From a virus (Duplodnaviria; Caudoviricetes), in the IMG/VR virus record IMGVR_UViG_3300002026_000014, positions 16,724-80,723 of that record: a DNA stretch of 64,000 nt. The stretch is one strand, 5' to 3'. This document shows, piece by piece, positions 48,534-57,815 of this stretch; positions within the stretch are counted from its first letter, which is position 1, and the number at the start of each line of letters is the position of its first letter. Position numbers and translations under genes: made by a program. Under the pieces are notes generated by a model. That model made no database searches and had not been told where the DNA came from. It saw nothing but the letters and a program-made list of their open reading frames with translations.

Positions 48534-49268
48534 ATTATTTTGAGGTGTATTTGCACAAAATAAATTAATAGGTAAAAATTGTAAACTAATAAATTCACAT
48601 ACTAACATAGTCATTAATTCAAATGGATCTGATGAATTATTTGAAAATAATTTCTTTTCGTCATCACTTAAACTTCTAATAAAACTTAGTCTAGGTACAT
48701 ACAAAATAGTATCTTTTAATATTTTAGTTTGAAGCTTACGATTATGTAAATTTAACCAATCCACATAATCATACATAATCAGCGCATTGTAATTTTCTTT
48801 TACATGTTCACAGGTAAGTTGCTGCGGTGACATATTAGTAGCTGTCACTAAAAATTGCTCGTTGAGTAAAACATATACGGCTCTAACAATTATTGACACT
48901 TCCAATTTTGATAACTCATAAGGATGAATATTAATAGTTATACTAGCATTAGATGCATGTGGTGTATTAATAGTTCTAATTACAACCGTATTACATAATT
49001 CAAAAATGAATGGATAAATGTTAGTTTTTAATGAATTCTCTACAACTTCATTTGGGAAATTATTTTTTACTTTTAAAAATAATTCCTTACTTAAAATACC
49101 TAATTTTTCATCTTCAAATAAATCAGTTTCTCTTTTATAGTAATCCGGCTTACTAGTTACATTAAATGCAAAATCTGGATCTATCTTAAGTAATGTTCCT
49201 AATCTTGTATCCAGTAATGCATCTAAAGAAACTAAAATTGTTTTATTATTTTGCTTTGCATCAGTCAT
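48519..49268 (-). CDS. Conserved phiKZ-like protein
   Basis: ILVSLDALLDTRLGTL, ITINIHPYEL, LIMYDYVDWL motifs. Confidence 0.7.
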   Translation of the reverse strand: MTDAKQNNKTILVSLDALLDTRLGTLLKIDPDFAFNVTSKPDYYKRETDLFEDEKLGILSKELFLKVKNNFPNEVVENSLKTNIYPFIFELCNTVVIRTINTPHASNASITINIHPYELSKLEVSIIVRAVYVLLNEQFLVTATNMSPQQLTCEHVKENYNALIMYDYVDWLNLHNRKLQTKILKDTILYVPRLSFIRSLSDDEKKLFSNNSSDPFELMTMLVCEFISLQFLPINLFCANTPQNNIMSQ

Positions 49269-49669
49269 ATTTTTATTACTTTAACAGGCATATTAGCTCT
49301 CATCATCAGATCAATCATGTTCATAGTGCCAGGCGATGAGCCATTATGAAAGGCTAAAAGTTGTGAAGACACTAGTGACATTTCATAATTTCTTTTATAT
49401 CCTGCACTTTTACCTAAACTCCAATCAGCGGGGAATTGTAAACAAGGATATTTAAATTTATCACACCATTCAATAATTAATCTATCTGCACCTGTAGGTG
49501 CAGCACCTGATATAAATAAAATAGGTGCATCAAAATTACTAATAAATTCCACTAGTATTTCATGAAATTCTTTTCTATTGTTATACCCCCTAGTGCCTGC
49601 TACGATTACACGGTTCCTGTAATCGTGTAAATTTAACGATTGAACTTGTTGCGTTTTAGGGTATATCAT
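49265..49669 (-). CDS. SLOG-superfamily (YspA/DUF2493-like) nucleotide-binding protein
   Basis: VIVAGTRG, ISGAAPTGAD, FPADW..GKSAGYKRN, LLAFHNGSSPGT. Confidence 0.8.
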   Translation of the reverse strand: MIYPKTQQVQSLNLHDYRNRVIVAGTRGYNNRKEFHEILVEFISNFDAPILFISGAAPTGADRLIIEWCDKFKYPCLQFPADWSLGKSAGYKRNYEMSLVSSQLLAFHNGSSPGTMNMIDLMMRANMPVKVIKI

Positions 49670-50372: not shown

Positions 50373-50867
50373 TCAAATGATTTGTATTAATCTGTTTAAT
50401 GAATCAAATCTGTATTGCATATTTTTATTTAGATTGTCTAAAAAGGAACTTAATTTCTCGTCGTATAGTTCAGATGTAGTGTTTTCTAAACTGGCTTTTT
50501 TCAAAGATTTACAATTTCCGACTATAACGGGTAGTTTCTTTAATGCAGATAAAACATTAGCTGCACCTACATGTCTGGCTGCAAATTTATCAGCTTCTAA
50601 CTCTTTTAACTTTTGATCTATTTGTTTTCTAGGTCCAGATAAATGACCTAAATTATAATGGCCTAGTTCATGGTAATAAATAGCCTTGAATTCTAAATCA
50701 GTCAAATTTCTTTTTAAATGAGTACTCATCACAATGACGTACCTAGGTGGTCCGGGCAATTCTTTACCGTTATAAAATTTCTTTGCAATCTCACGGGAAT
50801 CCCCAATGATTGCACCACCTGCTTTTAATAACTTTAAGTTAGTTGATACAATAAGTTGGAGTTGCAC
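50373..50867 (-). CDS. HExxH zinc-metallopeptidase-like protein (M48/ImmA-like)
   Basis: AIYYHELGH...ELEADKFA; start codon uncertain. Confidence 0.65.
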   Translation of the reverse strand: MQLQLIVSTNLKLLKAGGAIIGDSREIAKKFYNGKELPGPPRYVIVMSTHLKRNLTDLEFKAIYYHELGHYNLGHLSGPRKQIDQKLKELEADKFAARHVGAANVLSALKKLPVIVGNCKSLKKASLENTTSELYDEKLSSFLDNLNKNMQYRFDSLNRLIQII

Positions 50868-50924
50868 AGATTTTCCTAATTGATGTATTGGGTCATTTGA
50901 TTTACTAACTTAATCATTTTTAAC

Positions 50925-50960
50925 AAAAAAAAATAGAGCCCGCCACCGGGTTATTTTTTA
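50925..50960 (-). terminator. Rho-independent terminator
   Basis: GC-rich stem (GAGCCCG/CGGGTT) flanked by A and T tracts downstream of 50972..51169. Confidence 0.6.
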
Positions 50961-50971
50961 TACTACTAAAA

Positions 50972-51169
50972 TCAGTAGTATTTGAAGACGCCCCAGAGCT
51001 TGATATTCTCCAACCAAATTCCGTAGTTTTGTTTGAGATTTTTCCTGCGCCATGCGAGCTTTTCGTTAGCCATGCGAGCGCCATGAGAACGCGCTACGTG
51101 GCGCAGGACCTGTATCTTTTGATCCAATGTGACTGGGCGAGCAGCCTCAGGGATAACGGAGAAGTCCAT
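50972..51169 (-). CDS. Small basic GC-rich early protein
   Basis: 65 aa; best SD belongs to out-of-frame ATG at 51191. Confidence 0.6.
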   Translation of the reverse strand: MDFSVIPEAARPVTLDQKIQVLRHVARSHGARMANEKLAWRRKNLKQNYGIWLENIKLWGVFKYY

Positions 51170-51260
51170 TTTTTGATGCGAGTTTTTTCATGATAAATCC
51201 TTTCGCTACATTGTAGCATACATTAAAACGATTATAGATATATTCCTATGCCTATTCAAT

Positions 51261-51290
51261 TTTAGTATATGTGACTGAAAAAATCTAGGA
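51261..51290 (-). promoter_or_regulatory. Bipartite promoter-like motif copy
   Basis: Minus strand ATCCTAGA-TTTTTTCAGT-CACATAT. Confidence 0.65.
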
Positions 51291-51770
51291 TGAGATTAAA
51301 TATTTTTTAAGATAATGTCCTTGTTTCATCTGCTGATCATTAGGACAGTATCCGTAATCTGATTTAAATAAATTATAGTAATCAACGGCAGCCTCAGTTA
51401 TTGTACTACGGTGATGATCAAATCTTAAATCTATGCTAAAAGCTAGCTTTCTCATTTCTCTTAAAGCATCAATCTCTATTTGCCGAACTCTTTCGCTAGT
51501 GATAAATAATCGTTCACCAGCTTCCTTAAGTGTGAGTTCTAATTTAAATCTCATGTAAATAACATTTTTATGTAAGGGTTTAAGTTGATCTAATAATTTC
51601 CATACATATTCTGCAAAATTATCAATTGGACTTTGTTCGTTATAATCAATCTCATCAACTACTTCTACTTCTTTTATTAATAGGGGTAATTCTTTATTCC
51701 TACTGCTATATATTGCATATGCAGCGGAATTGTTACGTATATCTATTTCGCCATATCTTGGTTCTCTCAT
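51285..51770 (-). CDS. Stand-alone sigma-70 region-4 HTH protein (RpoD/FliA-like r4)
   Basis: LTLKEAGERLFITSERVRQIEIDALREMR; start reassigned to MREPRY to match paralog. Confidence 0.8.
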   Translation of the reverse strand: MREPRYGEIDIRNNSAAYAIYSSRNKELPLLIKEVEVVDEIDYNEQSPIDNFAEYVWKLLDQLKPLHKNVIYMRFKLELTLKEAGERLFITSERVRQIEIDALREMRKLAFSIDLRFDHHRSTITEAAVDYYNLFKSDYGYCPNDQQMKQGHYLKKYLISS

Positions 51771-51820
51771 ACCGTATTTCTTCCGCAGCATAGCTGCATA
51801 TATTAAAACGATTACAAATA

Positions 51821-52294
51821 TTATTTGATATTGTCAATTTTGGAAATTAGTGAACGGAAATTTTTCGGAACCATATTCTTATAAAAGAATGTGTCATAAA
51901 TTTTACCATAATTAAAGTTAGACATAAAATCTAACTTTAATCCATGATATTTAATTTTTATACAGACTAATGTTTTTAATTCACCCAAAGCGTTATTTAT
52001 CACACTTTCAATTTTGTTACGCTTGATAGACAACTCTTCAGATATTTCTAAATAAGTCATTTCTGATTCATACAACATGATCAGAATTCTTTTATCTAAT
52101 GGATCGAGTTCATCTAAAAATTCCCATACCATCCTAGCAGAATCATCAATAGAATATTGATCAATATAATCAATCTCATCAACTACTTCCACTTCTTTTA
52201 TTAATAGAGGTAACTCTTTATGCCTATTTCTATATATTTCATATGCACCAGGATTGTTACGTGTATCTATTTCGCCATATCTCGGTTCTCTCAT
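51821..52294 (-). CDS. Stand-alone sigma-70 region-4 HTH protein (ECF-like r4)
   Basis: LDELDPLDKRILIMLYESEMTYLEISEELSIKRNKIESVINNALGELK. Confidence 0.75.
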   Translation of the reverse strand: MREPRYGEIDTRNNPGAYEIYRNRHKELPLLIKEVEVVDEIDYIDQYSIDDSARMVWEFLDELDPLDKRILIMLYESEMTYLEISEELSIKRNKIESVINNALGELKTLVCIKIKYHGLKLDFMSNFNYGKIYDTFFYKNMVPKNFRSLISKIDNIK

Positions 52295-52324
52295 ACTGTA
52301 TTTCTTTCTCAGCTAATCACCATG

Positions 52325-52624
52325 TTAATCATCTAGATATTTATCTCTCTGCACATTTTCCCAAATTAATTCAGGAATTTTAATATTGAGATTCTTAAGA
52401 GCATTCTTGAAATATCCTAAGTCCCGATAATTATGTGGTTCAGATACCAATTTATTATCAGATAAATTGGTATAGAGATAAAAATTCTCATCGTCTATTT
52501 CGTCTTCATCGGAAGCTATAAACCTTTCAACAACAAGATAATACCTATGAAGTGGATTATCATATCCAACCAGTACCGTAAATTTATCATTATTAACTTC
52601 AACATCAATTGAATATTGCGACAT
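52325..52624 (-). CDS. Hypothetical protein
   Basis: 99 aa, AAAGGAATTTGCT-ATG. Confidence 0.7.
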   Translation of the reverse strand: MSQYSIDVEVNNDKFTVLVGYDNPLHRYYLVVERFIASDEDEIDDENFYLYTNLSDNKLVSEPHNYRDLGYFKNALKNLNIKIPELIWENVQRDKYLDD

Positions 52625-52647
52625 AGCAAATTCCTTTATTTTAAAAA

Positions 52648-53016
52648 TTACTCGTGTTGGTTTCTAGGGAAACCTTTTGGTGTGGCCCACCACCAATCTT
52701 TACCATTATCCAAATTGTATTTATCATTATACAATTCAATATCTACTAAAGTAGTAATTGGTGGTTGATCTACTTTTTGATCAAATTTAAAAATCGGAAT
52801 CCATTCATGTGTCTCACGAATGTATATCCATTTAGATTCAGCCAGTCCAGGCACTGATATTAACTCCTCTTCAGTAAGATGAGCTTTTTGGATAACACCG
52901 CCAATATCTTGATGACGGAAACAAAGAGACGGATCATCTCTTAAATATAAATCTTCAATGATTTCTTTATAGGTGTAAGACTTATATTGTTTTGGGTAAA
53001 TAATTATTTTGGACAT
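52648..53016 (-). CDS. Hypothetical early protein
   Basis: 122 aa downstream of promoter-like motif at 53062-53091. Confidence 0.7.
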   Translation of the reverse strand: MSKIIIYPKQYKSYTYKEIIEDLYLRDDPSLCFRHQDIGGVIQKAHLTEEELISVPGLAESKWIYIRETHEWIPIFKFDQKVDQPPITTLVDIELYNDKYNLDNGKDWWWATPKGFPRNQHE

Positions 53017-53061
53017 TATGAACTTTCAAAAAGAAACATGTTCGACTATTCCTTCCAAGGA

Positions 53062-53091
53062 AGTAATATGTGGTTTAAATATTCTAGAATC
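53062..53091 (-). promoter_or_regulatory. Bipartite promoter-like motif copy
   Basis: Minus strand ATTCTAGA-ATATTTAAAC-CACATATTAC. Confidence 0.6.
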
Positions 53092-53176
53092 AAAAAAAAA
53101 AATAAGAGCAAACTTATTTTTATCCGTTACGCGCTACGGTATCGAGCGGCATGTTTAATGTCATGCCTGACATTAC

Positions 53177-53395
53177 CTAATCTTGGTTAGTTGTGTCGCG
53201 ATATTCGCGCAAACTACCAATATAAGCTTGGATACCTTCCATTAGATCAGGAATAGTAAGGTTTAATTCCTTACCTATTTCCTCAACTAACAGAGAATCG
53301 TCCAACTCTTTTAGAGCTGAATAAATCTCCTCAAGCTTGATTAGGTTACTGTCATACACAGATACGTGTGTAACAGCAAACCCCATAAATGCCAT
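53177..53395 (-). CDS. Small acidic hypothetical protein
   Basis: AAGGAGATTAA-ATG; 72 aa. Confidence 0.7.
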   Translation of the reverse strand: MAFMGFAVTHVSVYDSNLIKLEEIYSALKELDDSLLVEEIGKELNLTIPDLMEGIQAYIGSLREYRDTTNQD

Positions 53396-53460
53396 TTAAT
53401 CTCCTTATATAGCAATTATAAAAATAAACAGTTTTATGACTTGTTTAGGTCTCAAGTAGG

Positions 53461-53778
53461 TCAGCTGATACTAACTAGCGCCCACTTGATAGACGCACCC
53501 TCAGGGAGAATGCTGGCTCCTTCTGGGAGCCGTGGACCGACGTATTGGCCCACTAGAATCTGGTCACCTGGGACCAATTGAACTGTCACACGTGCCATTG
53601 GCACAGGAGTACACAACACGTTGCCAAACACAGCCGCAGTGTCAGCATGCCCGACGGCGCTGTCTACATCCACTGTCATCACCTGAGCTTGGCCCAGAGT
53701 CAACTCATCCACCCGAATTGTGGATGTCAACGAATTCAGCATATTCAAAGAAAAAGCATTGCAGAGGAATTTGATCAT
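53461..53778 (-). CDS. acrIII-1: DUF1874 / AcrIII-1 family cA4 ring nuclease (anti-CRISPR type III)
   Basis: FLCNAFSLNML, SAVGHADTA, ARVTVQL, PRLPEG match the family motifs; GAAAGGTTTATC-ATG at 53778 (105 aa). Confidence 0.85.
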   Translation of the reverse strand: MIKFLCNAFSLNMLNSLTSTIRVDELTLGQAQVMTVDVDSAVGHADTAAVFGNVLCTPVPMARVTVQLVPGDQILVGQYVGPRLPEGASILPEGASIKWALVSIS

Positions 53779-54036
53779 GATAAACCTTTCTCGCGTAAAA
53801 ACGCTTTGAGAATTAGACATTTAAAGGTATGTCTATAAAACCAAATCCTTTTTGCACTTTCACCCTTTTGGGATAGGTAGTGCGTCAGGGCAAACCTTAT
53901 TGATCCGTTTCGTGGATCAGTCGTTTGCACACGATATCGTACAAATTACCTAATATATTCTCTTCATATTTAGGCGGTCAAAACGATGACCTTTAGCAGT
54001 TATTGAGTAGCATGCTTAGGCTACACGGGATGGGTA

Positions 54037-54336
54037 TTAAACGTTACCCCAACGTCGCTGGACTGCGATACGACGCATCCAATTAGTGAGCTGTTTCTTA
54101 AACAGCACGCATGGGATGAATGTGATAATCACAAACATTGCATACGGTAGCCACAACAGCATCAAGTAACTCGTCACAATTGTGACTGTCCTCACCGTGC
54201 TTCGACGATATGCCGGATAGCAATCGTAACTCAAACCAACCATTTCATTAAATACCGTGAAAGAAATGCTGGTCAGAATGCCAGCAAAGCCGACGATTGC
54301 GAAGAACGCGACGGAGAAGTATTCGATTGAGAACAT
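54037..54336 (-). CDS. Small membrane protein
   Basis: Two to three hydrophobic segments, basic C-terminus, AAAGGAAACATC-ATG. Confidence 0.7.
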   Translation of the reverse strand: MFSIEYFSVAFFAIVGFAGILTSISFTVFNEMVGLSYDCYPAYRRSTVRTVTIVTSYLMLLWLPYAMFVIITFIPCVLFKKQLTNWMRRIAVQRRWGNV

Positions 54337-54390
54337 GATGTTTCCTTTCGCAGCTGTGCTGCATTGGTTGATTAAATTACTAACTCAATT

Positions 54391-54420
54391 TAATCATATG
54401 TGACTGAAAAAATCTGGAAT
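54391..54420 (-). promoter_or_regulatory. Bipartite promoter-like motif copy
   Basis: Minus strand ATTCCAGA-TTTTTTCAGT-CACATAT. Confidence 0.65.
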
Positions 54421-54425
54421 ACAAT

Positions 54426-54468
54426 TTTAATACACCGAAGGAATTAACCCTTTGGTGTATTAAAATAT
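54426..54468. terminator. Terminator-like hairpin
   Basis: TTTTAATACACCGAAGG...CCTTTGGTGTATTAAAA. Confidence 0.65.
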
Positions 54469-54476
54469 TGTATTCA

Positions 54477-54836: not shown

Positions 54837-56261
54837 CTATAATACATTTAATTTTTTATTCTCGTCCATCCAATAAGGTTTATAGATGCCAGCTCTCATC
54901 TTTAATAAATCTAATGTGCTAAGAAACGGTATTGGATGTTTATCGTTATTAGATGTCCACCATCCCCGAGTAGATAATAAAGTCGACCAATCATACCCTT
55001 GAGTTTTCAAATCATCATATAACTCTTTAGGTGTACATAAAAACACTTTATCTGATTCCTGCCAAAGATAATTCATTTGACACATCTCAGATGTGATGTT
55101 CAAAGCTCTGCGTAAAAGTGGATCAGTGTCAATTTTCCCTCTGACTGAAGTTCTAGATAGTTTTACATCGGGATAAAGATCTAAACTGTAATTTTGCAAA
55201 CTACCTGTAATTCCATACCTATCGTTAGTTTTGATATAATTAAATTCAGTCAAAGACGGCAACACACCTTCTCTTTGAGAAATGATAATTTGCATAATCA
55301 AACCAGAAGGACCTGTTTTACTTCTGAGTTGAACCATTGTGACTAAAAATAAATCAGTATCACCTTTTACATTGTCATCGCTATTTCTAGGATATTCAGG
55401 ACCTTTTGTAGTGTCATTAAAAAGAGGAGTAGCGTTTTGGCATTGCCAGCAATTGGTAGTTAAGAATGTGAAATCATCAGTGACGCCTTTGAGTGTATCA
55501 TTGTTCTTTAAGAATTGTAATTTCTTAACGGGTGCTGCTCTTGGATCCATCGGAATGTTTTTACCCACATGTGCAGATATTAACATATAGTTATTGGATT
55601 GCTGAATCGGTTTTGGTAAATAAGAGAGCATTCTCTTTTTAGCCTGACCTTCTTTCATATACAAAGTGTTTGCACCGCTTTCACCTAATTCATTATCTTC
55701 TTGCATAGCGTTTGAAGATTGAGTATCAAACTTAGTCAAACTGTCAATTTCCGTAAAAGTGGGAATGAGCATAGTGAGATTAGTTTTACCGTCTCTGGAT
55801 AAGAATGGTGATTCCACAGTAATGCTTTTTGCATTAGCTATCTTAGAGTCCATATATTTTTTTAAGTGCTCAAACCACTCGTTACCATGATAAGCAGTTT
55901 TATCAGTCACTACCCATCTTCCGGTATTAATCACATCTTCATCTTTGAATTCAGTTATATTTGAAACGAGTGACTTTAAACGATTTTCAGAAATATTAAT
56001 TTCTGTATCGTAAGTACTAGCTGCACTATTTTCGAATTTCGACATAGCTGACAATAGCATGTAATGCATGATAGTGGATTTAAAATTATTACCGATACCC
56101 ACTATACCTGTGATATTTCCTAACCCGCCATTTAAAATACTCTCACCATGCTTACCTGTTTCATAACTGCCTGTAGCTATATCAAAAAGACTACCGATAT
56201 TATAAGAAAATTTAACATTCGGTATAGCTGTAAAATCAGCTTTTAAATTAAAATCAGCCAT
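54837..56261 (-). CDS. RecA/UvsX-like recombinase (phiKZ gp152-like)
   Basis: Walker A-like GIGNNFKST, YDTE, IDSLT, SAHVG, RSKTGPSG. Confidence 0.85.
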   Translation of the reverse strand: MADFNLKADFTAIPNVKFSYNIGSLFDIATGSYETGKHGESILNGGLGNITGIVGIGNNFKSTIMHYMLLSAMSKFENSAASTYDTEINISENRLKSLVSNITEFKDEDVINTGRWVVTDKTAYHGNEWFEHLKKYMDSKIANAKSITVESPFLSRDGKTNLTMLIPTFTEIDSLTKFDTQSSNAMQEDNELGESGANTLYMKEGQAKKRMLSYLPKPIQQSNNYMLISAHVGKNIPMDPRAAPVKKLQFLKNNDTLKGVTDDFTFLTTNCWQCQNATPLFNDTTKGPEYPRNSDDNVKGDTDLFLVTMVQLRSKTGPSGLIMQIIISQREGVLPSLTEFNYIKTNDRYGITGSLQNYSLDLYPDVKLSRTSVRGKIDTDPLLRRALNITSEMCQMNYLWQESDKVFLCTPKELYDDLKTQGYDWSTLLSTRGWWTSNNDKHPIPFLSTLDLLKMRAGIYKPYWMDENKKLNVL

Positions 56262-57472: not shown

Positions 57473-57712
57473 TCAAGACTTCAAGACCGCAAAGGTCTTC
57501 ATCATCTCTGTCAAGGCGGGCATTACTTCTTTGTAGATAGCCGGGATTTCACCCGGTTCTGCTTCGAGCGTGTAGCTCGAAGCATCCATTGAGAAACTAA
57601 CGTCCACACCTTGGGCAGGCCATATGCCAGCCTTGATGTCATCCGGTGTCGCTTCGCGCGGCTCCTTCTTTGCGTTGAAAGAAATGGCGCCCAGGTTAAA
57701 TGTGATCTTCAT
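57473..57712 (-). CDS. GC-rich early hypothetical protein (start reassigned)
   Basis: GAAAGGTTTATT-ATG AAG ATC; 79 aa. Confidence 0.7.
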   Translation of the reverse strand: MKITFNLGAISFNAKKEPREATPDDIKAGIWPAQGVDVSFSMDASSYTLEAEPGEIPAIYKEVMPALTEMMKTFAVLKS

Positions 57713-57780
57713 AATAAACCTTTCGCAGCTGTGCTGCATGTGATAAAACAATTGATTAGATATATTCCTATACTAATTCA

Positions 57781-57815
57781 ATTTAGTCATATGTGACTGA
57801 AAAAATCTGGAATAC
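57781..57815 (-). promoter_or_regulatory. Bipartite promoter-like motif copy
   Basis: Minus strand ATTCCAGA-TTTTTTCAGT-CACATATGAC. Confidence 0.65.

Follow-up and report, generated by a model that had tools for sequence, protein, structure and literature searches.

A predicted AcrIII-1 family ring nuclease in a putative early-expression cassette of a phiKZ-like phage contig

Type III is the CRISPR type that has been shown to defeat nucleus-forming phages, which it does by sensing exported mRNA, and a counter-attack by these phages on type III systems has received little attention so far. The locus described here raises the question of whether an uncultured large phage encodes such a counter-attack: what its 105-aa product is, whether the phage belongs to a nucleus-forming lineage, and how the gene would be expressed. 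We analyzed a window of 64,000 nucleotides, which corresponds to bases 16724–80723 of the 80,723-bp IMG/VR contig IMGVR_UViG_3300002026_000014; the contig is approximately 30% complete according to CheckV. The reading that we favor, with a probability of roughly 0.75, is that the gene provides an early-made cA4 ring nuclease that would blunt cA4-dependent type III effectors and complement the nuclear shell.

The gene is carried by the minus strand as an intact frame of 105 aa plus a stop codon (Table 1). A longer alternative frame of 119 aa starts at position 53820; however, the ATG at 53778 is the preferred start because GAAAGG is found six bases upstream of it and the homologues begin at the same place. 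No Shine-Dalgarno-like site was found ahead of the 53820 ATG, and homologues and solved structures align from residues 2–4 of the 105-aa form. A preliminary description of this DNA had read the DUF1874 signature motifs in the 105-aa ORF and had assigned it to the AcrIII-1 family. All four motifs were located, namely NAFSLNML (residues 7–14), AVGH (41–44), ARV (62–64), and PRLPEG (82–87), and the assignment was borne out by the searches that follow.

Table 1. Features of the locus (positions are those of the window).
Feature	Coordinates	Strand	Remarks
Accessory island	50373..54476	minus	4.1 kb; no counterpart in FLC9 or RP12
72-aa ORF	53177..53395	minus	65 nt downstream of acrIII-1
acrIII-1-like gene (DUF1874/PF08960), 105 aa	53461..53778	minus	Basis: ORF list, PF08960, PDB hits, alignment, model
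Spacer, 258 nt	53779..54036	minus	Between membrane-protein gene and acrIII-1
Shine-Dalgarno-like GAAAGG	53785..53790	minus	Before ATG 53778; sequence read directly
Small hydrophobic (probable membrane) protein, 99 aa	54037..54336	minus	Cassette gene 1, before acrIII-1
Early-promoter-like element	54380..54420	minus	19-nt core at 54394-54412; upstream of membrane-protein gene
Strong hairpin	54417..54475	minus	-27.1 kcal/mol, z = -7.6; just after stop of conserved upstream gene
UvsX-like recombinase	54837..56261	minus	Lineage marker; identity to FLC9, RP12, G001

Membership of the product in the AcrIII-1 (DUF1874) family is confirmed at the level of sequence and model, because sequence, fold, and active-site residues agree, and cA4 cleavage is its predicted activity. 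The protein scored 33.6 bits (E 4.4e-8) against Pfam PF08960 (STIV_B116-like, formerly DUF1874), for which the curated cut-off is 26 bits, and it also matched PHROG 5063 (phrog_5063, E 9e-16); NCBIfam contained no family for this gene or its neighbors. Homologues that carry PF08960 numbered 2187. When PDB sequences were searched with phmmer, AFV3-109, STIV B116, and SIRV1 gp29 were retrieved, the last including its cA4 complex 6scf. An AlphaFold monomer model built from 68 homologues reached a mean pLDDT of 96.8, and Foldseek ranked 6scf (SIRV1 gp29/AcrIII-1) first with a TM score of 0.80; B116, AFV3-109, and the Crn2 domain of the Marinitoga Csx1-Crn2 fusion came next. The top hits (6scf, 2j85, 2j6b, and 2x4i) had TM scores of 0.75–0.80 at a probability of 1.00, whereas the next unrelated fold reached a probability of only 0.02.

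The residues known to matter in SIRV1 gp29 were then compared. In gp29, His47 is the absolutely conserved general acid, whose replacement in H47A lowers activity more than 2500-fold, and the contacts with cA4 are made by R85, R66, N8, Q81, S11, T50, S49, and N13 (bioRxiv 10.1101/778746). Aligned to gp29 (H47, R85, R66, N8, Q81, S11, T50, S49, N13), the 105-aa protein has H44, R83, R63, N7, Q78, S10, T47, D46, and N12; the catalytic histidine and eight of nine cA4-contact side chains are kept. His44 pairs with gp29 His47 and is invariant in three homologue alignments, and E86, the glutamate of the RLxEG motif, corresponds to the conserved gp29 E88. The sole differing contact is S49, which is replaced by Asp46, and Asp is also found at this position in more than 90% of the close, bacterial-type homologues. 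The protein is 43.6% identical, over 96% of its length, to that of Thermoanaerobacterium phage THSA-485A, which in vivo abolished type III immunity based on cA4 but left that based on cA6 intact; SIRV1 gp29 and YddF each cleave cA4 (bioRxiv 10.1101/778746). The gene is borne on a phage contig among small phage ORFs, and no cas families were detected among the ORFs neighboring it, a setting of the Acr type rather than the Crn2 type.

We then asked which phage carries the gene. The preliminary description had placed it in a phiKZ-like jumbo lineage, and this assignment holds on sequence grounds because phiKZ-specific Pfam families are encoded in the window and synteny is shared with Burkholderia phage FLC9 and Ralstonia phage RP12. 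The Pfam matches comprise the phiKZ_gp29PR sheath family (112.6 bits), phiKZ_IP internal head proteins (78.6 bits), and DUF7193 (830 bits); a further match, to phrog_3233 (E 1.6e-83), identifies an RNA polymerase beta piece belonging to the split phiKZ type. Gene order between 26 and 61 kb of the window is common to FLC9 and RP12. The UvsX-like protein is 54% identical to that of FLC9, 52% to that of RP12, and 58% to that of an uncultured chimallin-positive contig, G001, and it gave 290 hits among phiKZ-like phages of Pseudomonas, Erwinia, Salmonella, Vibrio, and Serratia. All three of these relatives encode chimallin (FLC9, E 8e-29; RP12, E 1.6e-23; G001, E 1.9e-30).

Chimallin had been described as lying outside the window, and it was not found on the whole 80.7-kb contig (about 30% of the genome) either, whether phiKZ gp54, the FLC9 homologue, or a four-sequence profile was used as the query. 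A search of the same 80.7 kb with one PhuZ query likewise gave no match, so that neither of the two genes expected to confirm nucleus formation was recovered from the fragment. PhuZ also gave no hit in G001, the nearest relative, which has chimallin. The absences on the contig are uninformative because the fragment is only about 30% complete and because the chimallin gene of FLC9 and RP12 is more than 200 kb away from the region syntenic with the window. That the source phage forms a nucleus is a reasonable inference from its chimallin-encoding relatives.

Does a ring nuclease gene occur together with chimallin elsewhere? Among 50,697 GenBank phage records, tblastn found DUF1874 only in THSA-485A, archaeal viruses, and a Methanobacteriales virus, and in no jumbo phage; the Pfam model of PF08960 gave no hit in FLC9, RP12, or phiKZ. 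Of 38 IMG/VR contigs positive for chimallin, 3 also encode PF08960, and three more with chimallin were reached through DUF1874 on large contigs, giving six in total: G001 (261 kb, 95% complete, the nearest uncultured relative found), G005 (164 kb), G034 (144 kb), G043 (224 kb, complete with terminal repeats), G045 (207 kb), and G046 (110 kb). PhuZ is also present in four of the six, and the catalytic and ligand residues are kept in all six DUF1874 proteins. The combination of a shell with a type III counter-measure, which had been proposed for the source phage itself, is therefore seen in six chimallin-positive contigs and is expected here from the relatives, whereas the shell half of it was not found on the contig.

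The closest homologues of the 105-aa protein lie on phiKZ-like contigs: one of 75% identity on a short contig (L065, the closest), one of 64% on L062, which also carries DUF7193 and a 53%-identical copy of the window ORF at 52648–53016, and one of 63% on L066, adjoining a PhiKZ_MCP capsid gene. In the DUF1874 tree, the 105-aa protein clusters with these three homologues (SH-aLRT 88). A single origin of DUF1874 in chimallin phages was considered and dropped, as the six genes are scattered over the tree and need six changes, the same as shuffled labels; the tree has 109 columns and weak support, and establishes neither one origin nor several. The genomic position of the gene also varies. In G001, it comes after the ribonucleotide reductase genes, and the distance between DUF1874 and UvsX is 45–93 kb in G001, G005, and G034 versus 1 kb in the window. 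A 59%-identical DUF1874 protein is encoded by L067, that is IMGVR_UViG_3300023179_000009 (459 kb, 91% complete), in which no match to chimallin or UvsX was found; the family thus extends to other huge-phage lineages.

Several peculiarities of these relatives deserve mention. The DUF1874 protein of G005 (L061:1369-1767) is alone in being extended, by 27 residues, at its C-terminus. The UvsX-like gene of G034 (G034:C1:86871-88293) is split over five matches, and an in-frame TAA lies within its G005 counterpart (G005:C1:37462-38874), which suggests either interruptions (introns, inteins, or frameshifts) or assembly errors.

Within the window, the acrIII-1-like gene lies in an accessory island that is flanked by a conserved small gene beside UvsX and by the RNA polymerase piece. 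The island contains a metallopeptidase-like ORF, two sigma-70 region-4 proteins, small ORFs, and a cassette composed of the membrane-protein gene and acrIII-1. The 99-aa membrane protein matches no family, and its only homologue (60% identity, L065:450-851) adjoins the closest DUF1874 homologue. The order on L065 is ring nuclease followed by membrane protein, which is reversed in the window cassette; the leader and the ribosome-binding site are common to both. A search of a 5.8-billion-protein index with the 99-aa protein and with a 79-aa cassette ORF (see below) returned only the queries themselves, and an Atlas search with the same two proteins returned unnamed small viral membrane proteins or nothing.

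The hairpin upstream of the cassette is a probable terminator that would insulate it. The minus strand of the spacer between the two genes (53779–54036) showed no terminator-like site. A sigma-70-like match at 53981–53952 in this spacer was given no weight, as the regional scan returned 6 sites versus 6.7 expected. After acrIII-1, a search for a terminator found only a weak fold that was no better than shuffles, and the 72-aa ORF may be co-transcribed with acrIII-1 because no convincing terminator stands between them.

Two other features of the surroundings are side observations. The sigma-70 region-4 proteins are adjacent small proteins (51285–51791 and 51821–52294, minus strand) that contain region 4 only (Pfam 54.3 and 30.6–31.2 bits). 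The phiKZ-like lineage is thought to transcribe its genes with its own polymerases, and such proteins are odd there. A YAcAr/SLOG-family protein (PF10686, 36 bits) is encoded at 49265–49669 (minus strand), adjoining the RNA polymerase beta piece, and is kept in FLC9 and RP12; SLOG domains are predicted nucleotide-ligand binders.

Upstream of the cassette is a conserved promoter-like element that spans about 60 nt. Its 19-nt core at 54394–54412 reads, on the minus strand, 5'-TTTTTTCAGTCACATATGA; an identical copy is present at 57787–57805, and a third, at 51265–51283, has its last two bases changed. In the whole window, the motif has four matches versus 0.21 expected. The element agrees with the published OBP-type early-promoter consensus at 21 of 24 positions (3 mismatches); this consensus is tabulated for OBP, with N1M2, 201phi2-1, EL, and phiKZ variants, and rests on prediction by motif and position. 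The phiKZ octamer TATATTAC/G was also tried as a promoter signal and discarded, as its 10 matches versus 13 expected represent no enrichment. Of 12 related loci, 5 have the motif no more than 160 nt upstream of DUF1874, versus 0.005 expected. The hairpin and motif together stand directly before DUF1874 in L065, G005, G045, and both G042 copies, where the motif is the sole hit in about 6 kb. From the resemblance to predicted early promoters, we infer that the cassette is made early in infection, and the arrangement of hairpin, motif, and two genes can be read as a putative mobile early-expression cassette.

Each of the three element copies precedes a small ORF that is GC-richer than the surrounding DNA. 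In addition to the acrIII-1 cassette, one copy belongs to a segment at 57473–57805 (minus strand) with a 79/92-aa ORF at 57473–57751 that has no homologues (local GC 0.53), and the other to a segment at 50972–51283 (minus strand) with a 65-aa ORF at 50972–51169, also without homologues (local GC 0.42). Both appear to be sisters of the acrIII-1 cassette, and their ORFs are candidate counter-defense genes. Separately, the 120-kb contig IMGVR_UViG_3300021440_000015 carries two DUF1874 genes (L077 and L091) about 17 kb apart, each with its own copy of the promoter motif; the two cluster with the G005 gene in the tree.

The composition of the cassette bears on its origin. The acrIII-1-like gene has 52% GC versus 35.6% for the contig, and its GC3 (0.54) and that of the 99-aa gene (0.56) exceed the 0.18–0.28 of eight neighboring or core genes; the 72-aa ORF just downstream has a GC3 of 0.36. 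Part of this excess is intrinsic to an Ala/Gly/Pro/Val-rich protein, since DUF1874 genes are GC-richer than their flanks across 92 viral loci, by 5 GC points on average and by 9 in AT-rich contexts. The excess taken as proof of recent transfer is tempered by this family-wide difference of 5 points over the 92 loci. However, DUF1874 members with a GC3 of 0.11–0.22 exist in AT-rich genomes, and the unrelated neighbor shares the GC3 excess; because of these two findings, the data support a real, fairly recent acquisition of the two-gene cassette. The earlier suggestion of a GC-rich, acquired gene thus survives for the GC3 contrast, with the reservation that some of the excess belongs to the family.

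A broader and more speculative scheme, which we consider somewhat doubtful, is that ring-nuclease genes spread among nucleus-forming phages as self-contained early cassettes consisting of a hairpin, a virion-polymerase-type promoter, and a shared leader. Recombination would join the cassettes at the conserved promoter and leader, and the membrane protein linked to the gene in two contigs would be a second counter-defense component, for example, against membrane-bound cA4 effectors.

How the favored reading would work can be laid out step by step. When the guides of type III complexes meet phage mRNA, Cas10 makes cA4 in the cytoplasm, and the enzyme would need no special localization because its substrate is made there. 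By homology, the ring nuclease would bind cA4 as a dimer and cleave it into two linear A2>P halves, with His44 as the general acid, removing the signal before Csm6/Csx1, Can1/2, Cam1, and similar effectors stop the cell. The terminator-like hairpin would insulate the cassette and a virion-RNA-polymerase early-type promoter appears to drive it, with the ring nuclease as the second gene; the enzyme would be present from the start of infection, as the motif resembles early promoters predicted in phiKZ-like phages. It would cover RNA sensing and cA4 signaling, a route beyond the reach of the shell, in a host presumed to use a cA4-dependent type III system.

This protection would have limits. Type III immunity against the nucleus-forming phage PCH45 needs cyclic oligoadenylate signaling; in Serratia, it natively involves the cA3-activated NucC, and a swapped-in cA4-activated TtCsm6 also works (bioRxiv 10.1101/2022.06.20.496707). 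Because the native defense against PCH45 runs through cA3/NucC, a cA4-specific enzyme would help only against hosts with cA4 effectors, and cA3/NucC and cA6 systems would not be countered by the acrIII-1-like enzyme. The statement in the preliminary description that the gene closes the vulnerability of these phages to type III is too broad, given that the THSA-485A protein spared cA6 immunity and that Serratia, whose type III defense is the only one characterized in its native form against a nucleus-forming phage, uses cA3/NucC against PCH45.

Three other readings have to be weighed against this one. The enzyme could be an active cyclic-oligonucleotide nuclease directed at another signaling defense (CBASS-like, or CARF/SAVED-based) or at a signal other than cA4. 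Jumbo phages reportedly encode both phosphodiesterases and sponges that act against several nucleotide-signaling defenses (PMC13282480), and in a 2025 survey, anti-CBASS and anti-Thoeris genes were the commonest anti-defense types in chimallin/PhuZ phages (PMC12625630). We nevertheless regard this reading as unlikely, as all gp29 cA4-contact residues but one are conserved, the THSA-485A protein is selective for cA4 over cA6, cA4 is cleaved by SIRV1 gp29 and YddF, and no other substrate is reported for any family member in the literature examined. A different concern is the shell: the gene could be a true AcrIII-1 that acts as an ordinary anti-CRISPR in a large phage that builds no nucleus, as neither chimallin nor PhuZ turned up in the 80.7 kb and DUF1874 is also encoded on large phage contigs in which chimallin gave no hit, for example the 459-kb G041 (59% identity). 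Set against this are the incompleteness of the contig (only about 30%), the distance of more than 200 kb between FLC9/RP12 chimallin and the region syntenic with the window, the presence of chimallin in FLC9, RP12, and G001, the three closest relatives whose sequence is long or complete, and the phiKZ-specific virion families on the contig, which together make a phage without a nucleus improbable.

Least probable of all, and in our judgment very unlikely, is that the gene arrived recently as a passenger, or serves some other purpose (nucleic-acid binding was at one time suggested for the fold), and brings no anti-CRISPR benefit. Its strongly foreign composition (GC3 0.54 versus 0.18–0.28) does suggest a recent arrival, and some GenBank records still call family members DNA-binding proteins. 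However, the frame is intact, a ribosome-binding site and a phage-type promoter stand ahead of it, the catalytic and ligand residues are kept (S49 to Asp46 apart), and the ring-nuclease activity of the family is established (bioRxiv 10.1101/778746). In related phages, too, homologues with these residues stand repeatedly behind a promoter of this type, which argues for selection. An early-made cA4 ring nuclease that complements the shell remains the reading that we prefer; it predicts that the phage would be protected from type III systems that depend on cA4, and not from those that depend on cA3 or cA6.

With respect to significance, our contig and the six chimallin-positive contigs indicate that an intact ring nuclease recurs among uncultured members of the lineage, in several cases behind an early-type promoter, which is relevant where type III systems or jumbo phages are used as tools. 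Neither the enzyme family nor the general idea is new, and the gain lies in context and detail. A full-text literature search found no paper that pairs DUF1874 with phiKZ or jumbo phages. According to a 2024 pangenome of 331 isolated jumbo phages, ChmA/PhuZ phages have no verified anti-CRISPRs (PMC11448039), and ring nucleases go unmentioned in a 2026 review (PMC13282480). The general observation is nevertheless already published: one sentence of a BMC Genomics 2025 paper (PMC12625630) reports, from AntiDefenseFinder, an 'anti-CRISPR III' gene in six metagenomic chimallin/PhuZ phages. What is added here is the residue check, the anatomy of cassette and promoter, the linked membrane protein, and the composition.

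Among known systems, that report shares the idea of an anti-type III gene in nucleus-forming phages; the six IMG/VR contigs described here were found independently, the two sets of six may overlap, and the gene reported there may be an AcrIII-1. The sentence concerned gives no residues, cassettes, promoters, or composition, and by the filters described there the present contig (30% complete, without chimallin) would fail. Among named GenBank phages, the closest homologue is the THSA-485A AcrIII-1 (Tsac_2833), which is of the same length class and has the same His/Arg/Gln/Arg/Glu set but differs in its source, a 42-kb record of a phage of a thermophilic Firmicute; this is not a jumbo phage, and the gene is not in a phiKZ-type early-promoter cassette. 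SIRV1 gp29 (6scf and 2x4i), STIV B116, and AFV3-109 share the fold (TM 0.75–0.80), the catalytic His, and the cA4-binding residues, S49 of gp29 apart, which is Asp in the window protein; they differ in their identity of about 25–28%, their archaeal virus origin, and an extra insertion before the last strand. Crn2, as in the Marinitoga Csx1-Crn2 fusion (PDB 8y7f/8y7g), has the same domain and chemistry, but it is encoded beside, or as a fusion with, genes of type III CRISPR and serves to regulate the response of the host itself, whereas the window gene stands alone in a phage accessory island. The gene is a fresh example of a known viral tactic, in a fitting setting that has already been noted.
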